Shown in pieces: positions 1 through 53,642 of a stretch of 64,000 nucleotides of DNA. The DNA is taken from assembly GCF_965641715.1 (NCBI RefSeq), contig NZ_OZ282453.1. One strand, 5' to 3'. The notes under the pieces are model-generated. The model was not told the DNA's origin, made no database searches, and was given only the letters and a program-made list of their open reading frames with translations. This DNA is from Escherichia coli. GTDB lineage: Bacteria; Pseudomonadota; Gammaproteobacteria; Enterobacterales; Enterobacteriaceae. Numbering within the stretch: position 1 is the first letter of the stretch; each line of letters starts with the position of its first letter. The translations under genes and the position numbers were made by a program.

Positions 1-208
1 GCGTGCGCATGCCACCGGTGAAGTGGACGATAGCAAATTTAACGTGCTTGGTGGCTCGATTGCATACGGGCATCCCTTTGCGGCGACCGGCGCGCGAATG
101 ATAACCCAGACATTGCATGAACTTCGCCGCCGCGGCGGTGGATTTGGTTTAGTGACCGCCTGTGCTGCCGGTGGGCTTGGCGCGGCAATGGTTCTGGAGG
201 CGGAATAA
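1..208 (+). CDS. fadI: 3-ketoacyl-CoA thiolase FadI, C-terminal end (5' part lies outside the window)
   Basis: Open frame running off the left edge and ending ...[11 protein letters not shown], a thiolase C-terminus; stop overlaps the fadJ start (ATAATGG) as in the fadIJ operon. Confidence 0.85.
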
Positions 209-2352
209 TGGGAATGGCATCAGCGTTTACTCTTAATGTTCGTCTGGACAACATTGCTATCATCACCATCGACGTATCGGGTGAGAAAATGAATACCCTG
301 AAGGCGGAGTTTGCCTCGCAGGTGCGCGCCATTATTAAGCAACTCCGTGAAAACAAAGAGTTGCGAGGCGTGGTGTTTGTCTCCGCTAAACCGGACAACT
401 TCATTGCTGGCGCAGACATCAACATGATCGGCAACTGCAAAACGGCGCAAGAAGCGGAAGCTCTGGCGCGGCAGGGCCAACAGTTGATGGCGGAGATTCA
501 TGCTTTGCCCATTCCGGTTATTGCCGCTATTCATGGCGCTTGCCTGGGCGGTGGGCTGGAGCTGGCGCTCGCGTGCCACGGTCGCGTTTGTACTGACGAT
601 CCTAAAACGGTGCTCGGTTTGCCTGAAGTACAACTTGGATTGTTACCCGGTTCAGGCGGCACCCAGCGTTTACCGCGTCTGATAGGCGTCAGCACAGCAT
701 TAGAGATGATCCTCACCGGAAAACAACTTCGGGCGAAACAGGCATTAAAGCTGGGGCTGGTGGATGACGTCGTTCCGCACTCCATTCTGCTGGAAGCCGC
801 TGTTGAGCTGGCAAAGCAGGATCGTCCATCTTCCCGCCCTCTACCTGTACGCGAGCGTATTCTGGCGGGGCCGTTAGGTCGTGCGCTGCTGTTCAAAATG
901 GTCGGCAAGAAAACTGAGCACAAAACTCAGGGTAACTACCCGGCGACAGAACGTATTCTTGACGTTATTGAAACCGGATTAGCGCAGGGGACCAGCAGTG
1001 GCTATGACGCTGAAGCTCGCGCCTTTGGCGAACTGGCGATGACGCCACAATCGCAAGCTTTGCGTAGTATCTTTTTTGCCAGTACTGAAGTGAAGAAAGA
1101 TCCCGGTAGTGATGCGCCGCCTGCGTCATTAAACAGCGTGGGGATTTTAGGCGGTGGCTTGATGGGCGGTGGAATTGCCTACGTTACTGCCTGTAAAGCG
1201 GCTCTACCGGTAAGAATTAAAGATATCAACGCTCAGGGCATAAATCATGCGCTGAAGTACAGTTGGGATCAGCTTGATGGCAAAGTGCGCCGCCGCCATC
1301 TCAAAGCCAGCGAACGCGACAAGCAACTGGCTTTAATTTCGGGGACGACAGATTATCGCGGCTTTGCCCATCGCGATCTGATTATTGAAGCGGTGTTTGA
1401 AAATCTCGAGTTAAAACAACAGATGGTGGCGGAAGTGGAGCAAAACTGCGCCGCTCATACCATCTTTGCTTCGAATACTTCATCTTTACCGATTGGTGAT
1501 ATCGCCGCTCACGCCGCGCGACCTGAGCAGGTTATTGGCCTGCATTACTTCAGCCCGGTGGAAAAAATGCCGCTGGTGGAGATTATTCCTCATGCGGGTA
1601 CATCGGCGCAAACCATCGCCACTACGGTAAAACTGGCGAAAAAACAGGGCAAAACGCCAATCGTCGTGCGTGACAAAGCCGGGTTTTACGTCAATCGCAT
1701 CTTAGCGCCTTACATTAATGAAGCTATCCGCATGCTGACCGAAGGTGAACGGGTAGAGCACATTGATGCCGCGCTAGTGAAATTTGGTTTTCCGGTAGGT
1801 CCAATCCAACTTTTGGATGAGGTAGGAATCGACACCGGGACTAAAATTATTCCTGTACTGGAAGCCGCTTATGGAGAACGTTTTAGCGCGCCTGCAAATG
1901 TTGTTTCTTCAATTTTGAACGACGATCGCAAAGGCAGAAAAAATGGTCGGGGTTTCTATCTTTATGGTCAGAAAGGGCGTAAAAGCAAAAAACAGGTCGA
2001 TCCTGCCATTTACCCGCTCATTGGCGCACAAGGGCAGGGGCGACTCTCCGCACCGCAGGTTGCTGAACGGTGTGTGATGTTGATGCTGAATGAAGCAGTA
2101 CGTTGTGTTGATGAGCAGGTTATCCGTAGCGTGCGTGACGGGGATATTGGTGCGGTATTTGGCATTGGTTTTCCGCCATTTCTCGGTGGACCGTTTCGCT
2201 ATATCGATTCTCTCGGCGCGGGCGAAGTGGTTGCAATAATGCAACGACTGGCCACGCAGTATGGTTCACGTTTTACCCCTTGCGAGCGTTTAGTCGAGAT
2301 GGGTGCGCGTGGGGAAAGTTTTTGGAAAACAACTGCAACTGACCTGCAATAA
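208..2352 (+). CDS. fadJ: Anaerobic fatty-acid oxidation complex alpha subunit (enoyl-CoA hydratase / 3-hydroxyacyl-CoA dehydrogenase)
   Basis: 714-aa ORF with a crotonase-like N-terminal half and a Rossmann motif ([13 protein letters not shown]); sits directly downstream of fadI. Confidence 0.93.
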
Positions 2353-2554
2353 GAAGGTCAAAGCTATATGAATCCGCGCTGAATGGCGGATTGCTGGTCA
2401 AAATGTAAACGCATATTGACTATACTTACGCCATTGAGGTAAAAAACAGCGTTTCATTCGGTGAATGGATAAGGCACAATGCCGGCCACCGTTTTCTTTC
2501 TCTGGTTTCAGATGAAAGAAAACGGGCGAATCTGGTTAACAAAAGCGGTGCAAT

Positions 2555-3040
2555 ATGCAAGTTTTTATCATGCGTCACGGCGACGCAGCCCTCGATGCCG
2601 CCAGTGATTCGGTTCGTCCTCTGACTACTAATGGTTGTGACGAATCTCGCCTGATGGCGAACTGGCTGAAAGGTCAAAAAGTGGAAATCGAACGCGTTCT
2701 GGTGAGCCCGTTCCTGCGAGCCGAGCAAACACTGGAGGAAGTAGGGGATTGTCTGAACCTGCCTTCCAGTGCAGAAGTTCTGCCGGAGTTAACGCCCTGC
2801 GGCGATGTTGGTCTGGTCAGTGCCTATTTGCAGGCGTTGACCAATGAAGGTGTTGCTTCGGTGTTGGTTATCTCCCACTTACCGTTAGTCGGGTATCTGG
2901 TTGCCGAGTTATGTCCGGGCGAAACGCCGCCTATGTTTACCACCTCGGCCATTGCCAGCGTAACGCTTGATGAAAGCGGAAAAGGCGAGTTCAACTGGCA
3001 GATGAGCCCATGTAATTTGAAGATGGCGAAAGCTATCTGA
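2555..3040 (+). CDS. sixA: Phosphohistidine phosphatase SixA
   Basis: 161-aa ORF starting MQVFIMRHGDA, the RHG histidine-phosphatase motif; matches SixA in length and position next to fadJ. Confidence 0.9.
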   Translation: MQVFIMRHGDAALDAASDSVRPLTTNGCDESRLMANWLKGQKVEIERVLVSPFLRAEQTLEEVGDCLNLPSSAEVLPELTPCGDVGLVSAYLQALTNEGVASVLVISHLPLVGYLVAELCPGETPPMFTTSAIASVTLDESGKGEFNWQMSPCNLKMAKAI

Positions 3041-3049
3041 TTCGTTTGA

Positions 3050-3685
3050 AAAAATGCCCGATGTACAGCTTACATCGGGCATTTGTCTTTTTGCAATAGT
3101 AGATATTCACTCAAAACCTTTCACGGAGTTGATACGCTTCGATACAGAATTCATCGCACTTTTTCCTCTGCTTCCCTATTAATTTCTGACGAAATGAGAC
3201 TAAGTTGTAATGTATTTTTACAAAGCATCAAACTAATAGAACAGTTAATAATAAAAAAGAAATGATATTTTCGTGTCTTAATTTAATATTATTTGTGATG
3301 TGTTAATAGTATAACTTCAAAAAAGTACAATCTCAAACTTAATCTAAGATTGTCTTTTTTGCGCAGGTTATTCATAAATTGAAATTATGTGTAAGATATT
3401 TTTTTAAGCATTTCATTTCTTTTTTATAAGAAAATCCTCAAAATATTTCTATTCTGGCTATACATTAAGCGGTCCTTAATTCGCTGTTAAGTAAATATAA
3501 TTTGAAACAATAAAGACAAAATATCACCATCCGCCCACACCAAAGAATATCTTCTTATGCGACCTATTTTCTTGTTAGTTAGATCGGATAGCTTATTCAA
3601 TGGCTGGGTATAAATAATTGCTATTGACTGAATCAATGTATTGCAATGTTTATATTTTTAATTATTTATGGTTTAAGGACAAATA
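3050..3685. promoter_or_regulatory. AT-rich intergenic region upstream of the fimbrial operon (likely promoter/regulatory region)
   Basis: About 640 bp of strongly AT-rich non-coding DNA between sixA and the first fimbrial gene. No specific site is called. Confidence 0.4.
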
Positions 3686-4249
3686 ATGAGTAAGTTTGTA
3701 AAAACAGCTATTGCTGCAACAATGGTAATGGGTGCGTTCGCTTCTACTTCAACAATCGCCGCTGGCAACAATGGTACAGCACGTTTCTACGGCACCATTG
3801 AAGATTCCCCGTGCTCCATCGTTCCTGATGATCACAAACTGGAAGTTGATATGGGTGACATTGGTTCAGGGATCCTGAAAAACAACGGGACTTCTACACC
3901 GAAAGCTTTCCAGATCCATCTGCAAGACTGTGTGTTTGACACCCAGACAACGATGACCACTACCTTCACCGGTAACGCGTCTTCTACCAACAGCGGCAAT
4001 TACTACACCATTTACAATACCGATACTGGTGCGGCATTTAACAATGTCAGCCTGGCCATTGGTGACGCTCAGGGAACCTCTTATAAAAGCGGCGCGGGTA
4101 TCGAACAGAAAATCGTAAACGATACGGCGACCAACAAAGGCAAAGCGAAGCAGACGCTGGACTTTAAAGCCTGGCTGGTGGGCGCGGCTGATGCGCCAGA
4201 TTTAGGTAATTTTGAAGCCAACACGACCTTCCAGATTACTTATCTCTAA
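3686..4249 (+). CDS. yfcV: Fimbrial major subunit (chaperone-usher pilin)
   Basis: 187-aa ORF with a signal peptide (MSKFVKTAIAATMVMGAFASTSTIAA), one Cys pair and a C-terminal beta-strand ending ...TTFQITYL; first gene of the operon. Confidence 0.85.
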   Translation: MSKFVKTAIAATMVMGAFASTSTIAAGNNGTARFYGTIEDSPCSIVPDDHKLEVDMGDIGSGILKNNGTSTPKAFQIHLQDCVFDTQTTMTTTFTGNASSTNSGNYYTIYNTDTGAAFNNVSLAIGDAQGTSYKSGAGIEQKIVNDTATNKGKAKQTLDFKAWLVGAADAPDLGNFEANTTFQITYL

Positions 4250-4318
4250 GTGATACCCCCATAGCTTTCGGGCTATGGGGTTTTTAAATGGAATTCGCGC
4301 AAATTATAATAATTACGG

Positions 4319-6970
4319 ATGGATACGTGTATGCCTGACCATTCTCTTTTCCGACTGCGGGTACTTCCCTGCTGCGTTGCATTGGCAATGTCCGGGAGTT
4401 ATGTCAATGCCTGGGCTGAAGATGAAATTCAGTTTGATTCCCGTTTTCTGGAGTTAAAAGGCGACACAAAAATCGATCTGAAGCGATTTTCCAGCCAGGG
4501 TTATGTCGAGCCTGGGAAATACAATTTACAGGTTCAACTAAATAAACAGCCGCTGACGGAAGAATACGATATTTTCTGGTACGCCTCTGAGAACGATGCC
4601 AGTAAAACCTATGCCTGCCTGACGCCTGAACTGGTCGCGCAGTTTGGCTTAAAAGAGGATGTGGCAAAAAACCTGCAATGGATCCACGACGGCAAATGCC
4701 TGAAACCCGGTCAACTGGAAGGCATTGATATTAAAGCTGACCTGAGTCAGTCAGCGTTAGTCATTTCATTACCCCAGGCTTACCTTGAATATACCGACAT
4801 CAACTGGGATCCGCCTTCACGCTGGGATGACGGTATATCTGGTTTAATTGCTGACTACAGTATTACCGCCCAGACACGACATGAAGAAAATGGCGGGGAT
4901 GACAGCAATGAAATTAGCGGTAACGGGACGGTTGGGGTGAACCTCGGCGCATGGCGTCTTCGTGCCGACTGGCAGACTGATTATTTGCATAGTAAAAGCA
5001 ATGATGACGATGTTATCAACGGTGATGACACGCAAAAAAACTGGGAGTGGAGCCGCTACTACGCCTGGCGAGCCTTACCGTCGCTAAAAGCCAAACTTGG
5101 GCTTGGCGAAGACTACCTGAATTCTGATATTTTCGACGGCTTTAACTACGTGGGTGGCAGTATCAGCACCGACGATCAAATGTTGCCGCCGAATCTGCGC
5201 GGCTATGCGCCGGATATCTCCGGCGTGGCGCACACCACCGCGAAAGTGACCGTCAGCCAGATGGGCCGCGTGATTTACGAAACTCAGGTCCCGGCGGGGC
5301 CGTTCCGTATCCAGGATCTTGGCGATTCCGTCTCCGGTACGCTGCATATCCGCATTGAAGAGCAGAACGGTCAGGTGCAGGAATATGACATTAACACTGC
5401 GTCAATGCCGTTCCTGACCCGCCCCGGCCAGGTGCGCTATAAACTGATGATGGGCCGCCCGCAGGAGTGGGGGCACCACGTGGAAGGCGGTTTCTTCTCC
5501 GGCGGCGAAGCTTCCTGGGGGATTGCCAACGGCTGGTCGCTCTACGGCGGGGCGCTGGCAGATGAACACTATCAGTCGGCGGCGCTTGGCATCGGTCGCG
5601 ACCTGTCTGCCTTTGGCGCGGTCGCCTTTGATATCACCCACTCGCATACCCGCCTGGATAAAGAAACTGCCTACGGTAAAGGTTCACTGGACGGTAACTC
5701 GTTTCGCGTGAGCTATTCCAAAGACTTCGATGAACTGAACAGCCGCGTCACTTTTGCCGGATACCGCTTCTCGGAAGAGAACTTCATGACCATGAGCGAG
5801 TATCTCGATGCCAGCGACAGCGAAATGGTGCGCACCGGCAACGACAAAGAGATGTACACCGCCACCTATAACCAGAACTTCAGGGATGCCGGTGTGTCTG
5901 TTTATCTCAACTACACCCGCCATACCTACTGGGATCGCGACGAACAGACTAACTACAACATCATGCTCTCGCACTACTTCAACCTGGGCAGTATCCGCAA
6001 CATGAGCATTTCCATGACCGGATACCGCTACGAGTATGACAACCAGGCCGATAAAGGTGTGTACATATCGCTCAGTATGCCGTGGGGTGACAGCAGCACC
6101 ATCAGCTATAACGGCAACTACGGCAGCGGTTCGGACAGCAGCCAGGTGGGGTATTTCAGCCGTGTCGATGACGCAACCCATTACCAGTTGAACGTAGGCA
6201 CCAGCGACAATCACTCCAGCGTTGACGGTTATTACAGCCACGACGGATCGCTGGCGCAGGTCGATCTCAGCGCTAACTACCATGAAGGGCAGTACACCTC
6301 GGCGGGTATTTCCTTACAGGGCGGCGCGACGCTCACCGCACAAGGTGGCGCGCTCCACCGTACCCAGAATATGGGCGGCACGCGTCTGTTAATAGATGCC
6401 GATGGCGTGGTCGGTGTTCCGGTGGAAGGAAACGGTGCAGCGGTTTACACCAATATGTTCGGTAAGGCCGTGGTGGCAGACGTCAACAACTACTACCGCA
6501 ACCAGGCGTATATCGACCTAAACAACCTGCCGGAAAACGCCGAAGCCACCCAGTCCGTGGTGCAGGCCACCCTTACCGAAGGGGCCATTGGCTACCGTAA
6601 GTTCTCGGTTATCAGCGGGCAAAAAGCGATGGCGGTCCTGCGTCTGCAGGATGGTAGCTACCCGCCGTTTGGCGCGGAAGTGAAAAATGACAACGCGCAG
6701 AACGTTGGTCTGGTTGACGATGACGGCAACGTCTACCTCGCGGGCGTCAAACCTGGCGAGCATATGATCGTTTCATGGGGCGGTGTGGCCCACTGCGATA
6801 TTCATCTGCCTGACCCGCTGCCAGCCGATCTGTTCAATGGCCTGTTATTACCATGCCAGCAAACAGGGGCGATATCTCCTTCGATGCCTCATGAAATTAA
6901 GCCGATGATCCAGGAGCAGACCCAGCAGGTGATGCCAACGGAAGCACCGGTATCGGTATCCGCCAATTAA
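4319..6970 (+). CDS. yfcU: Fimbrial outer-membrane usher
   Basis: 883-aa ORF with signal peptide, usher size and position between pilin and chaperone. Exact start (4319 or 4331) is uncertain. Confidence 0.85.
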   Translation: MDTCMPDHSLFRLRVLPCCVALAMSGSYVNAWAEDEIQFDSRFLELKGDTKIDLKRFSSQGYVEPGKYNLQVQLNKQPLTEEYDIFWYASENDASKTYACLTPELVAQFGLKEDVAKNLQWIHDGKCLKPGQLEGIDIKADLSQSALVISLPQAYLEYTDINWDPPSRWDDGISGLIADYSITAQTRHEENGGDDSNEISGNGTVGVNLGAWRLRADWQTDYLHSKSNDDDVINGDDTQKNWEWSRYYAWRALPSLKAKLGLGEDYLNSDIFDGFNYVGGSISTDDQMLPPNLRGYAPDISGVAHTTAKVTVSQMGRVIYETQVPAGPFRIQDLGDSVSGTLHIRIEEQNGQVQEYDINTASMPFLTRPGQVRYKLMMGRPQEWGHHVEGGFFSGGEASWGIANGWSLYGGALADEHYQSAALGIGRDLSAFGAVAFDITHSHTRLDKETAYGKGSLDGNSFRVSYSKDFDELNSRVTFAGYRFSEENFMTMSEYLDASDSEMVRTGNDKEMYTATYNQNFRDAGVSVYLNYTRHTYWDRDEQTNYNIMLSHYFNLGSIRNMSISMTGYRYEYDNQADKGVYISLSMPWGDSSTISYNGNYGSGSDSSQVGYFSRVDDATHYQLNVGTSDNHSSVDGYYSHDGSLAQVDLSANYHEGQYTSAGISLQGGATLTAQGGALHRTQNMGGTRLLIDADGVVGVPVEGNGAAVYTNMFGKAVVADVNNYYRNQAYIDLNNLPENAEATQSVVQATLTEGAIGYRKFSVISGQKAMAVLRLQDGSYPPFGAEVKNDNAQNVGLVDDDGNVYLAGVKPGEHMIVSWGGVAHCDIHLPDPLPADLFNGLLLPCQQTGAISPSMPHEIKPMIQEQTQQVMPTEAPVSVSAN

Positions 6971-6992
6971 TAACGTGATTAAGGAATGATCC

Positions 6993-7745
6993 ATGACGAA
7001 TCTATTTTGCTCTGCCAAAAAATCCACAATGTTGCTGGCATTGCTACTAACCACTGCCAGCCTGTCAGCACAGGCCTCTGTCACGCCAGACCGTACACGC
7101 CTGATTTTTAATGAGAGTGATAAATCAATCAGCGTCACGCTGCGTAATAACGACCCGAAAATGCCGTATCTGGCACAAAGCTGGATGGAAGATGAACAGG
7201 GTAACAGGATTAGCTCGCCACTGACGGCCCTGCCGCCGGTGCAGCGCATCGATTCCATGATGAACGGCCAGGTGAAGGTGCAGGGGATGCCGGATATCAA
7301 CAAGCTGCCTGCCGACCGCGAGAGCGTGTTCTACTTCAACGTGCGTGAAATTCCGCCGAAATCGAATAAACCCAACACGTTACAGATAGTGCTGCAAACG
7401 CGCATCAAGCTGTTCTGGCGACCAAAGGCGCTGGAAAACGTCAGCATGAAAAACCCGTGGCAGCATAAGGTGACCTTAACCCGCAGCGGTCAGGAGTTTA
7501 CCGTCAATAATCCTACGCCGTACTACGTGGTTATCAGTAACGCCAGCACGCAGAAAAATGGCAATCCGGCAGCGGGATTTTCCCCCATGGTGATATCGCC
7601 AAAAACCTCTGTGCCGTTAAAAGTCAAAATGGATAGCGTCCCGGTGCTGTCTTACGTCAACGACTATGGCGCACGGATGCCGCTGTATTTTAAATGTGGC
7701 GGTGATACATGCCAGGTGGATGTAGAGCAGAGCCGCAAAGGCTGA
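6993..7745 (+). CDS. yfcS: Periplasmic fimbrial chaperone (PapD-like)
   Basis: 250-aa ORF with signal peptide and PapD-like features; follows the usher. Confidence 0.85.
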   Translation: MTNLFCSAKKSTMLLALLLTTASLSAQASVTPDRTRLIFNESDKSISVTLRNNDPKMPYLAQSWMEDEQGNRISSPLTALPPVQRIDSMMNGQVKVQGMPDINKLPADRESVFYFNVREIPPKSNKPNTLQIVLQTRIKLFWRPKALENVSMKNPWQHKVTLTRSGQEFTVNNPTPYYVVISNASTQKNGNPAAGFSPMVISPKTSVPLKVKMDSVPVLSYVNDYGARMPLYFKCGGDTCQVDVEQSRKG

Positions 7746-7760
7746 TGCCGGGAGAGCGAC

Positions 7761-8264
7761 ATGAGACAAATTTTTGTTGTGGGGGTGGGTATATTACTGC
7801 TGGGCGTTAGTGGGATATATAACATTATCCTTGCAAATTCAAAACCTGTTGATCTCATTTTACAGGTACATGTAGATCCTCCTCCGCCATGTAGCGTAAC
7901 GGGGAGTTCAGTAGATTTTCAGACTGTGAATATCAACGATATCAATGGTAGTAATTATCGTAAAGATGCAGGATATACGTTGTCATGCCCTGACCGAAAA
8001 GCTGATGATTTACGTATGCAGTTGAGAGGAAACACCACCACAATTAATGGAGAAAAAGTCGTTGATGTAGGGGTTCCAGGATTTGGTATTCGAATCGAGA
8101 ATGCAGATAACAACTCACTATTCTCCATTGGAGAAAACAACTGGACCCCTTTCAATATCACATCACAGCCGAAACTTAATGCAGTCCCGGTAAAACAAAG
8201 TGGTGCACAACTTTCAGGGGCCGATTTTAGTGGGAGTTTAACAATGGTGGTGGATTATCAATGA
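7761..8264 (+). CDS. yfcR: Fimbrial minor subunit
   Basis: 167-aa ORF with signal peptide and a C-terminal ...VVDYQ strand; 4-bp overlap with the next gene. Confidence 0.7.
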   Translation: MRQIFVVGVGILLLGVSGIYNIILANSKPVDLILQVHVDPPPPCSVTGSSVDFQTVNINDINGSNYRKDAGYTLSCPDRKADDLRMQLRGNTTTINGEKVVDVGVPGFGIRIENADNNSLFSIGENNWTPFNITSQPKLNAVPVKQSGAQLSGADFSGSLTMVVDYQ

Positions 8265-8737
8265 AAATACTCTTGTATTTATTGCTCTGTATGAGCAGCG
8301 GTATTGTGAATGCATCACCGGATATCACCTTCAAAGGAACTCTTGTATTGCCTCCGGCATGTACTATTAGTGATGGAAACACTATCGAGGTGGAGTTCAG
8401 GGATGTAATTATCGATAGCATTGATGGAAATAATGGGCGAGAGGTCGTGCCCTACGATATTAAATGTGATGCTGTTACACCCGGTAGTTCCTGGGATATG
8501 ACATTGACATGGATAGGCACACAAACAAGTTATGATGATGCTGCAATCGAAACTGATGTAACAGGATTAGGGATTAAACTTCGGCAAAATGGTCAGCCAT
8601 TTAGAGTAAATACACCGATACAAATTAACGCCGATACGAAACCACAATTAGAGGCTGTCCCCGTGAAGGCGGTAGATGCTGTATTAACAGACGGAACGTT
8701 TTCAGCTTCGGCCACATTACGGGTGGAATATCAATGA
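8261..8737 (+). CDS. yfcQ: Fimbrial minor subunit
   Basis: 158-aa ORF with signal peptide, ending ...RVEYQ; translationally coupled to its neighbours. Confidence 0.7.
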   Translation: MKILLYLLLCMSSGIVNASPDITFKGTLVLPPACTISDGNTIEVEFRDVIIDSIDGNNGREVVPYDIKCDAVTPGSSWDMTLTWIGTQTSYDDAAIETDVTGLGIKLRQNGQPFRVNTPIQINADTKPQLEAVPVKAVDAVLTDGTFSASATLRVEYQ

Positions 8738-9258
8738 AGATGAAAACCTGGTTCGCACTCATAGTAATGCTGTTACTGGCAGGAAATAGCACAGCGCGTG
8801 CAGACAATAATTTACACTTCTACGGAAATTTATTAAGTAAATCTTGTACCCTGGTAGTACAAGGACAAGTGCTGGCTGAAGTCCATTTCCCAAGTATCAG
8901 CAGCAGAGATTTAATGTCACGGGAACAATCTGATCGTGTGCCGGTCGTTTTTCAATTGAAAGATTGCAAAGGGCCTGTTGGTTACAAAGTTAGAGTTACG
9001 TTAACCGGTACCGAAGATAGCGATTTGCCAGGGTTTCTGGCTTTGGATGCATCATCGGGTGCGCAAGGTGTGAGCATTGGCATGGAAACAGTTGATGGGA
9101 TACAGGTCCCCATCAACAATTCGGCAGGGGCAATATTTAACCTGAGTAACGGTGCTAATAATCTTAACTTTAAGGCTTGGTTGCAGGCGAAATCTGGGCG
9201 TGAAGTCACTTCTGGTGAATTTACTGCCAGCCTGACGGCAATTTTTGAGTATATCTAA
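8734..9258 (+). CDS. yfcP: Fimbrial minor subunit
   Basis: 174-aa ORF with signal peptide, ending ...AIFEYI; overlapping start and stop with flanking genes. Confidence 0.7.
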   Translation: MKMKTWFALIVMLLLAGNSTARADNNLHFYGNLLSKSCTLVVQGQVLAEVHFPSISSRDLMSREQSDRVPVVFQLKDCKGPVGYKVRVTLTGTEDSDLPGFLALDASSGAQGVSIGMETVDGIQVPINNSAGAIFNLSNGANNLNFKAWLQAKSGREVTSGEFTASLTAIFEYI

Positions 9259-10098
9259 ATGAAAATAAAAGTGATTTTATTTGGTATGTTATTGTTCGGG
9301 CTTAATTCTTCTGTACAAGCAGACGTTACATTTAATAATGTTCAGACTTATGGCGCATCTTATGGCAGTGGGCTAACAACATCTATCGTTTATAAAATAG
9401 ATGTGTTAACCCCTGAAGGGGCATATTATGGGACATATTCACAAGGGGGGATTATGGTACAGGCAGGAGTTGTGCCTAACTTAACCTGGACTGGACCGGG
9501 TGTCCCCCCAGACATAACAATTCCGCCAGGGCGGGCACCGATAGTAGATGATTCTTATTGTCCCGGTATGACCTCTGGTTGGGTTTGTCATAGACTTCCT
9601 GTAAATGTACATGTTACGGGTACAACCCATGGTTGCCCTTGGGTGGTGACAACATCAATTTATAGCACAGCAAGGCCTCCGCAGGCGGGGCCATATTATT
9701 ATCAGGGGCCGAATGCGCACCAATCAAATTGTCCAACAGAGCCAGTAGCAAGCTATGATATTTCCTGGGATGAAAACACCGTTGTTCATAATAAATCATT
9801 AAGCCTGCAATCTACGGGGGGGGTTATTGAGAAATCGTTGCCGACATTCTTAATGAAAGATGGGCGATTATGTGATGGCAGTGACTTCAGTGATGACCGT
9901 GGAGCCTATTGTCGCCTGGTATCACAATTAATGACGTTTAGTGTCCAGGGTTGTGATAACAATAAAGTGAACGTAACGGCAAACCGACATCCTGTAACTG
10001 ATAAACAACTCCATGACATGCAGGTGCGTGTTGATACTAGTGAACGGCAAAGTTTTGATGCTACATGTCGCTTTCAATATATTCTTAATGAACTTTAA
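9259..10098 (+). CDS. yfcO: Fimbrial tip adhesin-like subunit
   Basis: 279-aa Cys-rich ORF with signal peptide; last gene of the fimbrial operon, next to smrB. Confidence 0.7.
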   Translation: MKIKVILFGMLLFGLNSSVQADVTFNNVQTYGASYGSGLTTSIVYKIDVLTPEGAYYGTYSQGGIMVQAGVVPNLTWTGPGVPPDITIPPGRAPIVDDSYCPGMTSGWVCHRLPVNVHVTGTTHGCPWVVTTSIYSTARPPQAGPYYYQGPNAHQSNCPTEPVASYDISWDENTVVHNKSLSLQSTGGVIEKSLPTFLMKDGRLCDGSDFSDDRGAYCRLVSQLMTFSVQGCDNNKVNVTANRHPVTDKQLHDMQVRVDTSERQSFDATCRFQYILNEL

Positions 10099-10117
10099 TT
10101 AATATTATTAGCCTCGA

Positions 10118-10160
10118 CAGTGTTCGTAGCCGGATAAGGCGTTTACCCCGCATCCGGCAT
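10118..10160. repeat. REP (repetitive extragenic palindromic) element
   Basis: gccggataaggcgtttaccccgcatccggca, a typical E. coli REP palindrome in the yfcO-smrB gap. Confidence 0.7.
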
Positions 10161-10211
10161 TTGGTCCCAGCATTCAGGGCGAAATGGCAAAACGCATCCG
10201 CCCCCTAATAT

Positions 10212-10763
10212 TCATGGCAACTCCGGCGGTAGCCACTCTTCCACTTCAATCAACACTAACAACGCTGCATCTCCGCCGTACTCTTTCGGCGCCTGGTGAA
10301 ATGCCATTACATGCGGATGTTGTGCCAGCCACAGCGGCGTTTGCTGTTTTAAAATATGCTTCCCGTGCCCGTGCATTACGCAAGCGCAAAACACATGTTC
10401 ACGGCGGCAGGCGGCAATCAACGCCCCCAGTTCCTGCTTGGCCTGTAGCTGCGTCAGACCGTGTAAATCCAAAAACAATTCCGGCGAATAATCACCGCGT
10501 CGCAACTTCTTCGCTTCAAAATGACTAACATCCGGGCGGACATATTTCACTGGGCCTTCGGTATTCAGTAACGGCTGAAACTCATCTGAGAAATAATGGC
10601 TGGCATCAGCCTGCTCCTGGATCAAGCGTTTCACCGGCACTTCGCTGACTTTTTTACGCTGTGGCCGATGGACAATGGTGTCCTGCTTAATCTTGCGAGT
10701 CCCCGCCATCAACTGGCGAAACAGAGCCTGGTCCTCCTCGCTAAGTGTTGTTTTCTTTTTCAT
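10212..10763 (-). CDS. smrB: Smr-domain ribosome-rescue endonuclease SmrB
   Basis: 183-aa ORF with a C-terminal Smr-like segment ([15 protein letters not shown]...HGHGKHIL); conserved position upstream of prmB. Confidence 0.85.
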
Positions 10764-10928
10764 TTATCTGTCTCTATTTCTAATTTTCCTACAGTTTACC
10801 CGACTCGTAGCGCAATCGATCGTTTTAAACGTATTTTTCCTCACTCACCGCGCGTGAATGCTGATTTATCGTCATCTTCATGGCAAACTAGCCGCCGAAA
10901 TTATTGCGATCATGCCCTGGAGGAATAC

Positions 10929-11861
10929 GTGGATAAAATTTTCGTTGATGAAGCAGTAAATGAGCTGCAAACCATTCAGGACATGTTGCGCTGGTCGGTG
11001 AGCCGCTTCAGCGCGGCAAATATCTGGTACGGTCACGGCACCGATAACCCGTGGGATGAAGCCGTACAGCTGGTATTGCCGTCGCTCTACCTGCCGCTGG
11101 ATATTCCGGAAGATATGCGCACCGCGCGTCTGACCTCCAGCGAAAAACATCGTATTGTTGAGCGCGTGATCCGCCGCGTCAACGAACGCATTCCGGTAGC
11201 TTACCTGACCAACAAAGCGTGGTTCTGCGGCCATGAATTTTACGTCGATGAACGCGTGCTGGTGCCGCGCTCGCCGATTGGTGAATTGATCAACAATAAA
11301 TTTGCCGGACTTATCAGCAAGCAACCGCAGCATATTTTAGATATGTGTACCGGTAGCGGCTGCATCGCCATTGCCTGTGCTTATGCCTTCCCGGAAGCGG
11401 AAGTCGATGCGGTAGATATCTCTCCCGACGCGCTGGCGGTTGCCGAACAGAACATCGAAGAACACGGTCTGATCCACAACGTCATACCGATTCGTTCCGA
11501 TCTGTTCCGTGATTTGCCGAAAGTGCAGTACGACCTGATTGTCACTAACCCGCCGTATGTCGATGCGGAAGATATGTCCGACCTGCCAAACGAATACCGT
11601 CACGAGCCGGAACTGGGCCTGGCATCTGGCACTGACGGCCTGAAACTGACGCGTCGCATTCTCGGTAACGCGGCAGATTACCTTGCTGATGATGGTGTGC
11701 TGATTTGTGAAGTCGGCAACAGCATGGTACATCTTATGGAACAATATCCGGATGTTCCGTTCACCTGGCTGGAGTTTGATAACGGCGGCGATGGTGTGTT
11801 TATGCTCACCAAAGAGCAGCTGCTGGCGGCCCGTGAACATTTCGCGATTTATAAAGATTAA
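10929..11861 (+). CDS. prmB: Ribosomal protein L3 glutamine methyltransferase PrmB
   Basis: SAM-methyltransferase motifs ([14 protein letters not shown]). The track ORF starts at 10596; the likely real start is the in-frame GTG at 10929 ([14 protein letters not shown]), giving ~310 aa. Confidence 0.88.
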
Positions 11862-11895
11862 GTAAACACGCAAACACAACAATAACGGAGCCGTG

Positions 11896-12981
11896 ATGGC
11901 TGGAAACACAATTGGACAACTCTTTCGCGTAACCACCTTCGGCGAATCGCACGGGCTGGCGCTCGGCTGCATCGTCGATGGTGTTCCGCCGGGCATTCCG
12001 CTGACGGAAGCGGACCTGCAACATGACCTTGATCGTCGTCGCCCTGGGACATCGCGCTATACCACACAGCGTCGTGAGCCAGATCAGGTCAAAATTCTCT
12101 CCGGTGTTTTTGAAGGTGTTACTACCGGCACCAGCATTGGTTTGTTGATCGAAAATACCGATCAGCGTTCTCAGGATTATAGTGCGATTAAGGACGTTTT
12201 CCGTCCTGGCCATGCCGATTACACCTACGAACAAAAATACGGTCTGCGCGATTATCGCGGCGGTGGACGTTCTTCCGCCCGCGAAACCGCCATGCGCGTG
12301 GCGGCAGGGGCGATTGCCAAAAAATATCTCGCCGAGAAATTTGGTATTGAAATCCGCGGCTGCCTGACCCAGATGGGCGACATTCCGCTGGAAATCAAAG
12401 ACTGGTCGCAGGTTGAACAAAATCCGTTCTTCTGCCCGGACCCGGACAAAATCGACGCGTTAGATGAACTGATGCGCGCGCTGAAAAAAGAGGGCGACTC
12501 CATCGGCGCGAAAGTCACCGTTGTAGCCAGTGGTGTCCCCGCCGGACTTGGCGAGCCGGTCTTTGACCGCCTGGATGCCGACATCGCCCATGCGCTGATG
12601 AGCATCAACGCGGTGAAAGGCGTGGAAATTGGCGACGGTTTTGACGTAGTGGCGCTGCGCGGCAGCCAGAATCGCGACGAAATCACCAAAGACGGTTTCC
12701 AGAGCAACCATGCGGGCGGCATTCTTGGCGGTATCAGCAGCGGGCAGCAAATCATTGCCCATATGGCGCTGAAACCGACCTCCAGCATTACCGTGCCGGG
12801 GCGCACCATTAACCGCTTTGGCGAAGAAGTTGAGATGATCACCAAAGGCCGTCACGATCCTTGTGTCGGGATCCGCGCGGTGCCGATCGCTGAAGCGATG
12901 CTGGCGATCGTATTAATGGATCACCTGTTACGGCAGCGGGCGCAAAATGCCGATGTGAAGACTGATATTCCACGCTGGTAA
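11896..12981 (+). CDS. aroC: Chorismate synthase
   Basis: Begins [33 protein letters not shown], the classic chorismate synthase N-terminus; 361 aa. Confidence 0.95.
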
Positions 12982-12984
12982 AAA

Positions 12985-13809
12985 ATGAACAAAACCGCGA
13001 TTGCGCTGCTGGCCCTGCTTGCCAGTAGCGTCAGCCTGGCAGCGACGCCGTGGCAAAAAATAACCCAACCTGTGCCGGGTAGCGCACAATCGATAGGCAG
13101 TTTTTCTAATGGCTGTATCGTCGGCGCTGACACGCTGCCGATACAGTCCGAACATTATCAGGTCATGCGTACCGATCAGCGTCGCTATTTCGGTCACCCG
13201 GACCTGGTGATGTTTATCCAGCGTCTGAGTAGCCAGGTGAGCAATCTGGGCATGGGTACGGTGCTGATTGGCGATATGGGGATGCCCGCTGGTGGGCGTT
13301 TCAACGGCGGTCATGCCAGCCACCAGACCGGACTGGATGTCGATATCTTTCTGCAACTGCCGAAAACTCGCTGGACCTCCGCGCAGCTCTTGCGCCCGCA
13401 AGCGTTAGATTTGGTTTCCCGGGACGGTAAACGCGTTGTCCCCACGCTGTGGAAGCCGGAAATTTTCAGCTTGATCAAACTCGCCGCCCAGGACAAAGAC
13501 GTCACGCGCATTTTTGTTAATCCGGCGATTAAACAACAACTTTGCCTTGATGCGGGCACCGATCGCGACTGGTTGCGCAAAGTGCGACCCTGGTTCCAGC
13601 ATCGTGCGCATATGCATGTACGATTACGTTGCCCTGCCGATAGTCTGGAGTGTGAAGATCAACCTTTACCGCCACCAGGCGATGGTTGCGGGGCAGAACT
13701 GCAAAGCTGGTTTGAACCTCCAAAACCGGGAACAACAAAGCCTGAGAAGAAGACACCGCCTCCGTTGCCGCCTTCCTGCCAGGCGCTACTGGATGAGCAC
13801 GTGATCTAA
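12985..13809 (+). CDS. mepA: Penicillin-insensitive murein endopeptidase MepA
   Basis: 274-aa ORF with signal peptide and His/Asp-rich zinc-peptidase segments; conserved aroC-mepA linkage. Confidence 0.9.
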
Positions 13810-14618
13810 TGGAAACGTTTAATAGCCTGTTTATGGTTTCCCCGCTGTTGCTGGGAGTTCTCTTTTTTGTCGCCATGCTGGCGGGATTTATCGACTCGAT
13901 TGCCGGTGGCGGTGGGTTACTCACCATTCCGGCATTGATGGCAGCGGGGATGTCTCCCGCTAATGCGCTGGCAACCAATAAACTGCAAGCCTGCGGCGGC
14001 TCTATTTCCGCCACTATCTACTTTATTCGCCGCAAAGTGGTTAGTTTAAGCGATCAGAAACTCAATATCGCCATGACCTTTATCGGCTCAATGAGCGGCG
14101 CACTGCTGGTGCAATACGTTCAGGCTGATGTCTTACGGCAGATTTTGCCCATTCTGGTGATTTGTATCGGCCTCTATTTCTTGCTGATGCCAAAGCTGGG
14201 TGAAGAAGATCGCCAGCGCCGGATGTACGGTTTACCCTTCGCGTTAATTGCCGGTGGCTGCGTCGGTTTTTATGACGGATTCTTTGGTCCGGCAGCCGGA
14301 TCGTTTTACGCGCTGGCCTTTGTTACGCTGTGCGGATTCAACCTCGCCAAAGCCACGGCTCACGCCAAATTACTCAACGCAACGTCAAACATCGGCGGTT
14401 TACTGCTGTTTATTCTCGGCGGCAAAGTGATTTGGGCGACGGGCTTTGTGATGCTAGTGGGGCAGTTCCTCGGCGCGCGCATGGGTTCAAGACTGGTGTT
14501 GAGCAAAGGACAAAAACTGATCCGCCCGATGATCGTTATCGTCTCGGCGGTGATGAGTGCCAAATTACTTTATGATAGCCACGGACAGGAGATCCTCCAC
14601 TGGTTGGGGATGAACTAA
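13809..14618 (+). CDS. yfcA: Inner-membrane TauE/SafE-family transporter
   Basis: 269-aa polytopic membrane protein with repeated Gly-rich helices; start overlaps the mepA stop. Confidence 0.8.
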   Translation: METFNSLFMVSPLLLGVLFFVAMLAGFIDSIAGGGGLLTIPALMAAGMSPANALATNKLQACGGSISATIYFIRRKVVSLSDQKLNIAMTFIGSMSGALLVQYVQADVLRQILPILVICIGLYFLLMPKLGEEDRQRRMYGLPFALIAGGCVGFYDGFFGPAAGSFYALAFVTLCGFNLAKATAHAKLLNATSNIGGLLLFILGGKVIWATGFVMLVGQFLGARMGSRLVLSKGQKLIRPMIVIVSAVMSAKLLYDSHGQEILHWLGMN

Positions 14619-15166
14619 TGAACAGTACACACCACTATGAGCAGTTGATTGAAATTTTTAATAGCTGCTTTGCCGATGATTTTAATACCCGTCTGATTAA
14701 AGGCGACGACGAACCGATCTATCTTCCTGCTGATGCGGAAGTACCGTATAACCGAATCGTCTTTGCCCACGGCTTTTATGCCAGCGCAATTCATGAGATT
14801 TCGCACTGGTGTATTGCCGGGAAAGCGCGCCGCGAGCAGGTTGATTTCGGCTACTGGTATTGCCCGGACGGTCGCGATGCCCAAACGCAAAGCCAGTTTG
14901 AAGATGTTGAAGTGAAGCCGCAGGCGCTTGACTGGTTGTTCTGCGTGGCGGCGGGATACCCGTTTAACGTCAGTTGCGACAATCTGGAAGGCGACTTCGA
15001 ACCGGACCGCGTGGTGTTTCAACGGCGAGTACATGCGCAGGTGATGGATTATCTAACAACTGGCATTCCGGAACGCCCGGCACGTTTCATTAAAGCACTA
15101 CAAAATTATTATCACACGCCGGAACTTACGGCGGAACAGTTCCCGTGGCCGGAAGCGCTCAACTGA
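14618..15166 (+). CDS. epmC: EF-P beta-lysyl-lysine hydroxylase
   Basis: 182-aa ORF at the conserved position after yfcA (ATGAACTAATG overlap). Confidence 0.75.
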   Translation: MNSTHHYEQLIEIFNSCFADDFNTRLIKGDDEPIYLPADAEVPYNRIVFAHGFYASAIHEISHWCIAGKARREQVDFGYWYCPDGRDAQTQSQFEDVEVKPQALDWLFCVAAGYPFNVSCDNLEGDFEPDRVVFQRRVHAQVMDYLTTGIPERPARFIKALQNYYHTPELTAEQFPWPEALN

Positions 15167-15199
15167 AGCCAGCGCCACGTTTTACAATGAGGAAAGAAG

Positions 15200-15478
15200 A
15201 TGATCGCGGAGTTTGAATCACGCATTCTGGCATTAATCGACGGTATGGTTGACCATGCCAGTGATGATGAGTTGTTTGCCAGTGGGTATTTGCGTGGCCA
15301 CCTGACATTAGCCATCGCAGAACTGGAAAGTGGTGATGACCACTCCGCTCAGGCGGTACATACGACCGTTAGCCAGAGTCTGGAAAAAGCCATTGGTGCT
15401 GGTGAATTGTCGCCGCGTGACCAGGCGCTGGTGACCGATATGTGGGAAAACCTGTTTCAGCAGGCGTCACAGCAGTAA
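15200..15478 (+). CDS. yfcL: Small conserved protein YfcL
   Basis: 92-aa ORF at the syntenic position. Confidence 0.7.
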
Positions 15479-15484
15479 GTTGCG

Positions 15485-15595
<111 letters not shown>

Positions 15596-15598
15596 TGG

Positions 15599-17671
<2,073 letters not shown>

Positions 17672-17763
17672 CTATTAATTGGCTGATCGGACTTGTTCGG
17701 CGTACAAGTGTACGCTATTGTGCATTCGAAACTTACTCTATGTGCGACTTACAGAGGTATTGA

Positions 17764-18984
17764 ATGAAACGTGCAGTGATTACTGGCCTGGGCATTGTTT
17801 CCAGCATCGGTAATAACCAGCAGGAAGTCCTGGCATCTCTGCGTGAAGGACGTTCAGGGATCACTTTCTCTCAGGAGCTGAAGGATTCCGGCATGCGTAG
17901 CCACGTCTGGGGCAACGTAAAACTGGATACCACTGGCCTCATTGACCGCAAAGTTGTGCGCTTTATGAGCGACGCATCCATTTATGCATTCCTTTCTATG
18001 GAGCAGGCAATCGCTGATGCGGGCCTCTCCCCGGAAGCTTACCAGAATAACCCGCGCGTTGGCCTGATTGCAGGTTCCGGCGGCGGCTCCCCGCGTTTCC
18101 AGGTGTTCGGCGCTGACGCAATGCGCGGCCCGCGCGGCCTGAAAGCGGTTGGCCCGTATGTGGTCACCAAAGCGATGGCATCCGGCGTTTCTGCCTGCCT
18201 CGCCACCCCGTTTAAAATTCATGGCGTTAACTACTCCATCAGCTCCGCGTGTGCGACTTCCGCACACTGTATCGGTAACGCAGTAGAGCAGATCCAACTG
18301 GGCAAACAGGACATCGTGTTTGCTGGCGGCGGCGAAGAGCTGTGCTGGGAAATGGCTTGCGAATTCGACGCAATGGGTGCGCTGTCTACTAAATACAACG
18401 ACACCCCGGAAAAAGCCTCCCGTACTTACGACGCTCACCGTGACGGTTTCGTTATCGCTGGCGGCGGCGGTATGGTGGTGGTTGAAGAGCTGGAACACGC
18501 GCTGGCGCGTGGTGCTCATATCTATGCTGAAATCGTTGGCTACGGCGCAACGTCTGATGGCGCAGATATGGTTGCTCCGTCTGGCGAAGGCGCAGTACGC
18601 TGCATGAAGATGGCGATGCATGGCGTTGATACCCCAATCGATTACCTGAACTCCCACGGTACTTCGACTCCGGTTGGCGACGTGAAAGAGCTGGCAGCTA
18701 TCCGTGAAGTGTTCGGCGATAAGAGCCCTGCGATTTCTGCAACCAAAGCCATGACCGGTCACTCTCTGGGCGCTGCTGGCGTACAGGAAGCTATCTACTC
18801 TCTGCTGATGCTGGAACACGGCTTTATCGCCCCGAGCATCAACATTGAAGAGCTGGACGAGCAGGCTGCGGGTCTGAACATCGTGACCGAAACGACCGAT
18901 CGCGAACTGACCACTGTTATGTCTAACAGCTTCGGCTTCGGCGGCACCAACGCCACGCTGGTAATGCGCAAGCTGAAAGATTAA
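17764..18984 (+). CDS. fabB: 3-oxoacyl-ACP synthase I
   Basis: 406-aa ORF starting [22 protein letters not shown], with the active-site region [14 protein letters not shown] and a C-terminal [10 protein letters not shown]. Confidence 0.95.
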
Positions 18985-18987
18985 TTC

Positions 18988-19065
18988 GCAGTAGGCCGGA
19001 GTAGGTCGGATAAGACGCGTCAGCGTCGCATCCGACGTTACGCGCCAATGCGGCATCCGGCACTA
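18988..19065. repeat. REP palindromes downstream of fabB
   Basis: ggtcggataagacgcgtcagcgtcgcatccgac plus an adjacent gcggcatccggca unit. Confidence 0.65.
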
Positions 19066-19255
19066 ACGCCAAAGGGAACCCGATGGTTCCCTTTTTCACA
19101 TCATTGACAATCGCCGCCTGTTCCAGGCAAACTTCCCGCTTTGTCGATTTCCTTCTGAAAAGACGTACGCGTTAATTCCTGCCAACGCACCGTAACCCTG
19201 AAACCAGAGAGATGAGACGGGGATACTCCTCGCCTTGCGCTGCATTCTGGAGTAA

Positions 19256-21429
<2,174 letters not shown>

Positions 21430-53320: not shown

Positions 53321-53642
53321 GGTGTGGCCCCTTGTGTAGTAAGTTGTGAAAACTCACCATCCAGAGCTGCGAAACTGTGGGTGGCGAGACGTACGAGGTT
53401 CGCAGTACCGGCTACACAAGAACCCGGCCCGACCGAAGTCGGCCCCGTACGCCCCGCCATAATTCTGACGCGAAAAAAACGTGGCAATACAGTACGCACA
53501 AAAAAACCGCTGGCGCGGTTGTGCGCTTGTGTAGTCAGCAGGCTGCGAAACCCGGCACCCGTTTTGTGAGGTGCAGCGGAAATGTAACCTGACTGATTGC
53601 GGCATGGCAAGCGGTTTTTTTGTGTGTGCATGTTCTGGTTTC

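Follow-up and report, generated by a model that had tools for sequence, protein, structure and literature searches.

The window analyzed in this study is a stretch of 64,000 nucleotides of Escherichia coli DNA (NCBI RefSeq assembly GCF_965641715.1, contig NZ_OZ282453.1). Seven open reading frames lie on its plus strand between positions 3686 and 10098, and the listing of reading frames contains no internal stop codon in any of them. The initial annotation had described these as the seven uninterrupted genes of a Yfc fimbrial operon. This description is confirmed, as the reading frames are open and the Pfam domains of their products are full length, with matches far beyond what chance would give. 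All products are equal in length to, or differ by a few residues from, the annotated RefSeq homologues in O157:H7, in K-12, and in TB06051, an isolate from Galapagos fresh water. A frameshift that had been overlooked was considered and rejected because every product reaches its full length and is the same as, or very close to, a protein annotated in RefSeq, with five of them (the major pilin, the three minor pilins, and the adhesin) matching the TB06051 proteins at 100% identity.

The operon is preceded by fadJ and sixA and is followed by smrB (on the minus strand), prmB, and aroC. This places it between sixA and smrB (yfcN), which by synteny is the site of the K-12 yfc locus, and this locus is matched in 5,416 of 5,426 complete E. 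coli genomes. Together with the gene order and the resemblance of the assembly proteins to those of K-12, the flanking genes support the name Yfc that the operon was given at the outset. Based on these features, we are highly confident that these genes form a complete chaperone-usher fimbrial operon of the pi (Pap-like) class and the Yfc type, situated at the sixA-smrB (yfc) locus of the Escherichia chromosome. Its features are listed below.

Features of the Yfc-type fimbrial operon in the window
Feature	Position	Strand	Length	Basis
Noncoding leader/promoter region, AT-rich	3085..3685	+		Base composition (~30% GC)
Major pilin, YfcV / StfA-like	3686..4249	+	187 aa	Pfam Fimbrial, 62 bits
Perfect 10-bp G+C-rich hairpin followed by T-run	4257..4280	+		Terminator scan and RNA fold
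Outer-membrane usher, YfcU / StfC / PapC-like	4331..6970	+	879 aa	Pfam PapC_N, Usher, PapC_C
TAC (Tyr) codon where K-12 yfcU has TAG (codon 579)	6062..6064	+		Alignment, context ...QADKGVYISLSMPW...
Periplasmic chaperone, YfcS / StfD / PapD-like	6993..7745	+	250 aa	Pfam PapD_N and PapD_C
Minor pilin 1, YfcR / StfE-like	7761..8264	+	167 aa	Pfam Fimbrial
Minor pilin 2, YfcQ / StfF-like	8261..8737	+	158 aa	Pfam Fimbrial
Minor pilin 3, YfcP / StfG-like	8740..9258	+	172 aa	Pfam Fimbrial
Putative tip adhesin, YfcO / StfH family	9259..10098	+	279 aa	Pfam DUF2544 (PF11245)

The genes are closely packed. When maximal reading frames are considered, the junctions consist of gaps of 15-22 nt, two 4-nt ATGA overlaps (one of them formed by the start of minor pilin 2 and the stop of minor pilin 1), and one stop codon that abuts the next ATG. 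An alternative start at 8734 would extend minor pilin 3 to 174 aa, whereas the gene is annotated from 8740 in the closest genome. The sole larger gap separates the pilin from the usher and contains the hairpin, which adjoins the 3′ side of the pilin stop codon. Attenuating or mRNA-stabilizing hairpins of this kind are known from the pap and fim operons. By analogy, the hairpin is a likely intra-operon attenuator or mRNA-stabilizing stem-loop, and such a role fits the observation that this allele and that of K-12 have identical stems but different loops.

Four proteins carry a Fimbrial domain, which is an incomplete immunoglobulin fold, together with an N-terminal hydrophobic leader characteristic of a signal peptide. 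Their C-termini read ...ITYL, ...VDYQ, ...VEYQ, and ...FEYI, and thus each includes the Tyr-containing final strand expected of pi-clade subunits. The major pilin matches WP_000033336.1, the protein annotated as yfcV in both TB06051 and O157, at 100% identity, and shares 88.8% amino-acid identity with K-12 YfcV. Its top NCBIfam match is StfA, at 102 bits against a cut-off of 267. The chaperone has the two-domain periplasmic architecture of PapD, which it matches at 202 bits in a search of solved structures, compared with ~84 bits for FimC. It is 85.6% identical to K-12 YfcS and 90.4% identical to the O157 chaperone, and its top NCBIfam match is StfD (326 bits, cut-off 447). We take the Arg residue at mature position 8 (in SVTPDRTR) and the Lys residue in TRIKLFWRP to be the equivalents of PapD Arg8 and Lys112, respectively, as judged by eye.

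The usher possesses the N-terminal, β-barrel/plug, and C-terminal domains of a full-length protein, with Pfam coverage of 1-145 of 146 positions for PapC_N, 3-549 of 549 for Usher (E 2e-187), and 3-61 of 66 for PapC_C. Residues 34-843 align to residues 2-806 of the 809-residue PapC chain 7lhg_C. By the scores of the structure-sequence search, the usher is nearer to PapC (733 bits) than to the gamma-clade usher FimD (~263 bits). The initial annotation was correct in calling this protein full length, but its figure of 883 aa corresponds to the maximal reading frame (4319-6970). The usher most likely starts at ATG 4331 and has 879 aa, because the homologues in TB06051, O157, and K-12 share this codon and are annotated from it, whereas ATG 4319 has no counterpart in K-12. 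A score of 1862 bits against NCBIfam model NF011812 (cut-off 972, covering profile positions 1-880 of 881) and 90.2% amino-acid identity to the product of the K-12 yfcU pseudogene indicate that the protein groups with K-12 YfcU.

The subunits encoded downstream are less similar to their named counterparts. Minor pilins 1, 2, and 3 are 60%, 63%, and 69% identical to the K-12 proteins and 44%, 47%, and 59% identical to those of O157, and their top NCBIfam matches are StfE (128 bits, cut-off 264), StfF (146 bits, cut-off 253), and StfG (150 bits, cut-off 253). The putative adhesin matches PF11245 along the entire family profile (235 bits, cut-off 25, positions 2-246 of 246) and bears the RefSeq family name StfH/YfcO, while a search of NCBIfam returned no model at E up to 1e-10. 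It is 100% identical to E. coli protein cluster P0001 and to TB06051 WP_001383353.1, and 44% identical to both K-12 YfcO (43.7%) and the O157 protein. Thus, the tip subunits and adhesin belong to the same families as K-12 YfcR, YfcQ, YfcP, and YfcO, but are not the same alleles.

Within the adhesin family, the N-terminal half is variable and the C-terminal half is conserved, with a mean pairwise identity of 35% for the N-domain and 68.5% for the C-domain (35/39 aligned Escherichia sequences). An AlphaFold2 model of the adhesin consists of two β-sandwich domains (pLDDT 89), and fold searches with it return generic Ig-like matches alone, none of them specific. At the sequence level, a search of the PDB gave zero matches at E up to 1. 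The YfcO adhesins are therefore a family without a solved structural relative detectable by sequence.

According to the initial annotation, the usher is disrupted in the laboratory K-12 lineage, and this statement is borne out. The gene yfcU (b4661) is annotated as a pseudogene in NC_000913.3, and PGAP annotation of resequenced MG1655 likewise reports a pseudogene, flagged “internal stop.” Translation of K-12 yfcU reveals a single in-frame TAG (amber) at codon 579 (...RADKGM*ISLSMPW...). The K-12 lesion is a nonsense codon, and is neither a frameshift nor an IS insertion. Alignment of the two ushers demonstrates that the K-12 copy is not equally intact, given that the corresponding codon in the window is TAC. 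Partial suppression of the amber codon is expected in supE/glnV44 laboratory strains.

To place this difference in the species, a 73-mer spanning the codon in its K-12 context was searched against complete E. coli genomes. The version with TAG is found as an exact match in 363 of 5,426 genomes, and the version with TAC in an otherwise K-12 context is found in 1,320. The broken usher of K-12 is therefore the exception and the intact state is the norm, which makes the intactness of the operon in the window unremarkable. Among the matches listed, the TAG genomes are a laboratory-developed strain, two strains for which no natural source is given, and the fecal isolate LD27-1, whose usher is likewise annotated with an “internal stop.”

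Wurpel et al. (2013) described yfc as “intact in all genomes” of their collection, of which K-12 MG1655 is a member (PMC3559732). This statement is at odds with the K-12 amber codon. The criteria for intactness named in their text concern insertions of transposons and truncation of structural genes, and this nonsense codon is not mentioned there (PMC3559732).

The leader preceding the pilin gene has no reading frame of more than 60 aa, and carries a Shine-Dalgarno sequence (AAGGA) located ~7 nt upstream of the pilin ATG. Between positions 3041 and 3690 there are no PapI/PapB-like regulator genes, and the locus includes no dedicated regulator gene. A search of the leader for a Pap-like pair of GATC sites yielded a single GATC. 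The elements of Pap-type phase variation, namely PapI/PapB-like regulators and two upstream Lrp/Dam GATC sites, are accordingly missing from this region. A sigma-70 promoter scan found 12 candidates compared to 13.2 expected from shuffled controls, which is the level of chance. We also considered an invertible element resembling that of fim. The only inverted repeat of note in the leader has 18-nt A/T-rich arms that are 94% complementary and lie 141 nt apart. There is no recombinase gene nearby, and the inverted repeat is probably fortuitous. The length and AT-richness of the leader suggest that H-NS silencing is the likely default state of the operon, as has been reported for K-12 yfc (cited in PMC3559732).

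The site and gene order are those of K-12 yfc, but the sequence of the operon diverges strongly from the K-12 allele and represents a different one. In a sliding-window comparison, divergence from K-12 begins abruptly at ~3,060, immediately after the sixA terminator, and stops within the 3′ end of smrB at ~10,200-10,550. The leader is 46-66% identical to that of K-12 (positions 2955-3554), DNA identity is ~78-83% in the 5′ half of the operon, and the 3′ half can barely be aligned. In contrast, the leader is 99-100% identical to those of O157 and TB06051.

Comparisons with these two genomes resolve the operon into parts of different affinity. From leader through usher, DNA identity to O157:H7 is ~97-100%, and it is ~97% over positions 1-7742 as a whole. 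It drops within the chaperone gene and collapses after ~7,700. Among complete E. coli genomes, TB06051 gives the best match to the operon (99.2%). Over positions 6,755-10,754, identity to this genome is 99.5-100% in 200-nt windows, and the usher gene includes patches of 93-96%. These sharp breakpoints show that the copy is a mosaic, in which a leader, pilin, usher, and chaperone of the O157:H7 type are joined to a tip-adhesin cassette of the O145:H28 / TB06051 type. Of the 5,426 complete genomes, 38 have the full allele combination, and these are mostly O145:H28 Shiga toxin-producing strains (97.7% identity), along with a few animal or environmental isolates (98-99%). Among the GTDB representative genomes, an exact 60-mer from the adhesin gene has a single match, in Escherichia sp. 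E1V33, which is 94-97% identical to the window.

Synonymous divergence provides a measure of the age of these alleles. Between the window and K-12, dS is 0.81 for yfcV, 1.17 for yfcU, and 1.07 for yfcS, compared to 0.17 for fadJ and 0.13 for prmB in the flanks. Thus, the yfc allele classes are far older than the surrounding chromosome. The corresponding dN/dS values are 0.076, 0.046, and 0.074 for the three assembly genes (fadJ, 0.072; prmB, 0.028), and so purifying selection on the pilin, usher, and chaperone is strong. These estimates pertain to the assembly genes and the flanks, as saturation of the synonymous sites makes dS incomputable for the four genes of the tip and adhesin.

Old allele classes that nevertheless remain under strong purifying selection argue against one possible view of the operon, namely that it is an intact-looking relic whose reading frames are open but whose expression is permanently silent, or whose products are inactivated by missense changes, such that no Yfc fiber is formed under natural conditions. 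The AT-rich leader, the chance-level promoter signal, and the lack of a regulator gene would be in keeping with such a relic. Wurpel et al. (2013), citing Korea 2010, call the K-12 yfc operon “functional but cryptic” (PMC3559732), and this can be read in the same way. Furthermore, gene calls are split or supernumerary in some relatives with the same allele, wherein the adhesin is entered twice (H70) or one extra gene name appears (H72, H75, and H76). However, a relic would not be expected to have dN/dS values of 0.05-0.08 at a synonymous divergence near 1, or to share five of seven proteins at 100% identity with a strain whose DNA differs by 1.4% around the operon, or to be retained in nearly every complete genome of the species. 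We therefore regard such a relic as very improbable.

It is also conceivable, albeit unlikely, that a different fimbrial type occupies the yfc site, either the “epo/eso” cluster or a further variant, in which case the comparison with the K-12 usher would be of little informative value. Archer et al. (2011) gave this separate name to an alternative pi-type cluster that E. coli W and O157:H7 share at sixA-yfcN (PMC3032704), and PGAP assigns no yfc symbols to the usher, minor pilins, and adhesin of the allele class found in the window. The poor alignment of the 3′ half with K-12 DNA, tip proteins with 60-69% identity and an adhesin with 44% identity to those of K-12, and the excess of synonymous divergence over the flanks point in the same direction. 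Yet the number of genes, their order, and the insertion point are the same as in K-12 yfc, protein identity to K-12 is 86-90% for the pilin, usher, and chaperone, and the usher matches the NCBIfam subfamily of K-12 YfcU over its full length. Moreover, Wurpel et al. (2013) place all such loci in one type, Yfc, by usher phylogeny and locus position (PMC3559732), and the distinction is mostly one of nomenclature. Assignment of the operon to Yfc, which we prefer, rests on its locus, its gene order, the usher family, and the sequence identity of the assembly proteins.

One possible reading, which we offer tentatively and rate at somewhat below even probability, is that the yfc site harbors anciently diverged, modular allele classes. 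The assembly module would be formed by the leader, pilin, usher, and chaperone, and the tip module by the three minor pilins and the adhesin, with the two recombining independently. The N-domains of YfcO would then be distinct receptor-binding domains under diversifying or balancing selection, and the operon in the window would be a rare recombinant. The allele relationships described above are in line with published work. Wurpel et al. (2013) classified Yfc as a core-associated type with a fixed locus (PMC3559732). Ren et al. (2016) reported that the nucleotide diversity of yfc genes is unusually high, and listed yfcR/Q/P/O as “absent” in some strains (PMC4850163). Both the high diversity and the presence of alternative clusters at the site have been noted earlier (PMC4850163, PMC3032704). 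If the modular reading is true, only the modular exchange and a new lectin fold would be new.

Comparison with characterized systems helps to define how the operon might operate. The K-12 operon yfcOPQRS-yfcU'-yfcV (b2332-b2339, with the usher b4661) has the same site, seven-gene order, domain content, and post-pilin hairpin stem, and differs in its amber usher codon, its largely unrelated upstream region, and a synonymous divergence of about 1. The O157:H7 operon (ECs3222-ECs3216) is the cluster that was named epo/eso in E. coli W, and the 5′ half of the operon in the window belongs to this O157 / E. coli W class. The two agree in type in the leader, in the pilin and usher (100% and 98.9% identical in amino-acid sequence), and over most of the chaperone, whereas the O157:H7 tip cassette is a different allele from ~7,700 onward, its minor pilins and adhesin being 44-59% identical to those of the window. 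The full combination seen in the window recurs in the O145:H28 strains. With the Stf operon of Salmonella enterica, the top NCBIfam matches are colinear gene by gene (StfA, NF011812, StfD, StfE, StfF, and StfG), but all non-usher proteins score far below the equivalog cut-offs, which identifies them as homologues rather than equivalogs.

Among systems with solved structures, the P pilus is the closest, as PapC and PapD are the nearest relatives of the usher and chaperone. The layout of major pilin, usher, chaperone, and minor pilins, with the adhesin last, is also shared. Unlike the P pilus operon, the operon in the window lacks PapI/PapB regulators, the paired GATC switch, and a PapH-like terminator gene between pilin and usher. 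In addition, its adhesin is unrelated to PapG by sequence, as judged from the PDB search described above.

Given that PapC and PapD are the closest solved relatives and that the genes are colinear with StfA, StfD, StfE, StfF, and StfG, we infer that the products act in a pi-clade chaperone-usher pathway. According to what is established for such pathways, all seven products would be exported by Sec, the PapD-like chaperone would cap the pilins by donor-strand complementation, and the PapC-like usher would polymerize the subunits by donor-strand exchange. The YfcO-family adhesin would be incorporated before the three minor pilins, which would serve as the tip or adaptor, and these would be followed by a shaft of YfcV-type pilin. 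A high ratio of pilin to usher is probably set by the conserved post-pilin hairpin, and the ~600-bp leader with its GC content of 30% is probably responsible for silence of the operon in laboratory culture, as reported for K-12 yfc. Because its genes are intact, the strain may be able to make this fimbria, and the fiber is presumably adhesive.

The operon is ordinary in most respects, residing at its usual Escherichia site and already being represented in public databases and in the literature, including the K-12 pseudogene. The usher pseudogene is a trait of the K-12 lineage, and therefore K-12 is a poor reference for the capability of the yfc locus. The strain has a complete Yfc copy that bears a different tip adhesin, and the main value of this finding lies in correct annotation. 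Several allele classes that are deeply diverged and have exchanged adhesin cassettes are grouped under the label “Yfc.” What remains is only mildly interesting, namely the modular and old allele structure of the locus and the hypervariable, structurally uncharacterized YfcO family.

The divergence that distinguishes the yfc allele class extends into the 3′ end of the neighboring housekeeping gene smrB. In the 3′ part of this gene (10155-10554, minus strand), the DNA matches K-12 at 77-92% and O157:H7 at 88-90% identity, although the SmrB proteins are 97-99.5% identical. This divergence at the DNA level suggests that a recombination breakpoint of the allele class lies within smrB. Inside the usher gene, two patches (5555-5754 and 6155-6754) are 93-96.5% identical to TB06051, the best complete E. 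coli match for the operon, whereas their surroundings are 99-100% identical. Judged by these identity values, the patches look like small recombination tracts.

The tip cassette, comprising three minor pilins and a YfcO-family adhesin, appears to have relatives beyond E. coli. An exact 60-mer of the rare adhesin allele is present in Escherichia sp. E1V33 (NZ_RHJI01000010.1), which represents a species other than E. coli. Where its sequence aligns with the window, in stretches covering 8294-19829, identity is 94-97%. Together, these matches suggest that the cassette crosses species boundaries within Escherichia.

The K-12 lesion in yfcU is an amber TAG at codon 579 (7041-7043 of the K-12 locus sequence), whose counterpart in the usher gene examined here is at 6062-6064. 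Many K-12 cloning strains carry the amber suppressor glnV44 (supE44), and thus readthrough of the yfcU amber codon could occur in such hosts. The TAG allele is also found in LD27-1, a faecal isolate from China, and therefore may not be a mutation of laboratory origin alone.

Within its AT-rich leader, the operon carries an inverted repeat that is itself rich in A and T (see the table below). No recombinase gene lies near this repeat (3251-3427), and the repeat may well be due to chance.

Much of the remaining window (~21,700-56,700) appears, based on homology, to be a P2-family prophage inserted between flk and pdxB. In other E. coli, the annotation of homologous regions includes tail sheath, tube, tape measure, ogr and Hok/Gef genes, along with a terminase, a P2-type capsid, a replication endonuclease and a TagO-like protein. 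Two Rfam matches, to C4 antisense RNA and isrK, adjoin each other within the prophage, and this pair presumably lies in the immunity region.

Features of the operon leader and of the putative P2-family prophage with its flanking genes
Feature	Window position	Strand	Details
18-nt inverted repeat	3251-3268 and 3410-3427		Operon leader; 94% complementary; arms 141 nt apart
flk	20434-21429	minus	One side of putative prophage
C4 antisense RNA	53377-53464	minus	Rfam, 83 bits, above gathering score
isrK Hfq-binding sRNA	53500-53574	minus	Rfam, 64 bits, above gathering score
pdxB	~56.7-57.8 kb		Other side of putative prophage

The source lineage itself looks unusually divergent. Its fadJ (1-2352) is 95.3-96.4% identical to the copies in K-12, TB06051 and O157:H7, and those three share 97.3-98.6% identity among themselves. 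Across 10.2-34 kb, a stretch that includes prophage DNA, the best complete E. coli genome is ~96% identical. The source strain may represent a deep-branching E. coli or a cryptic-clade Escherichia.
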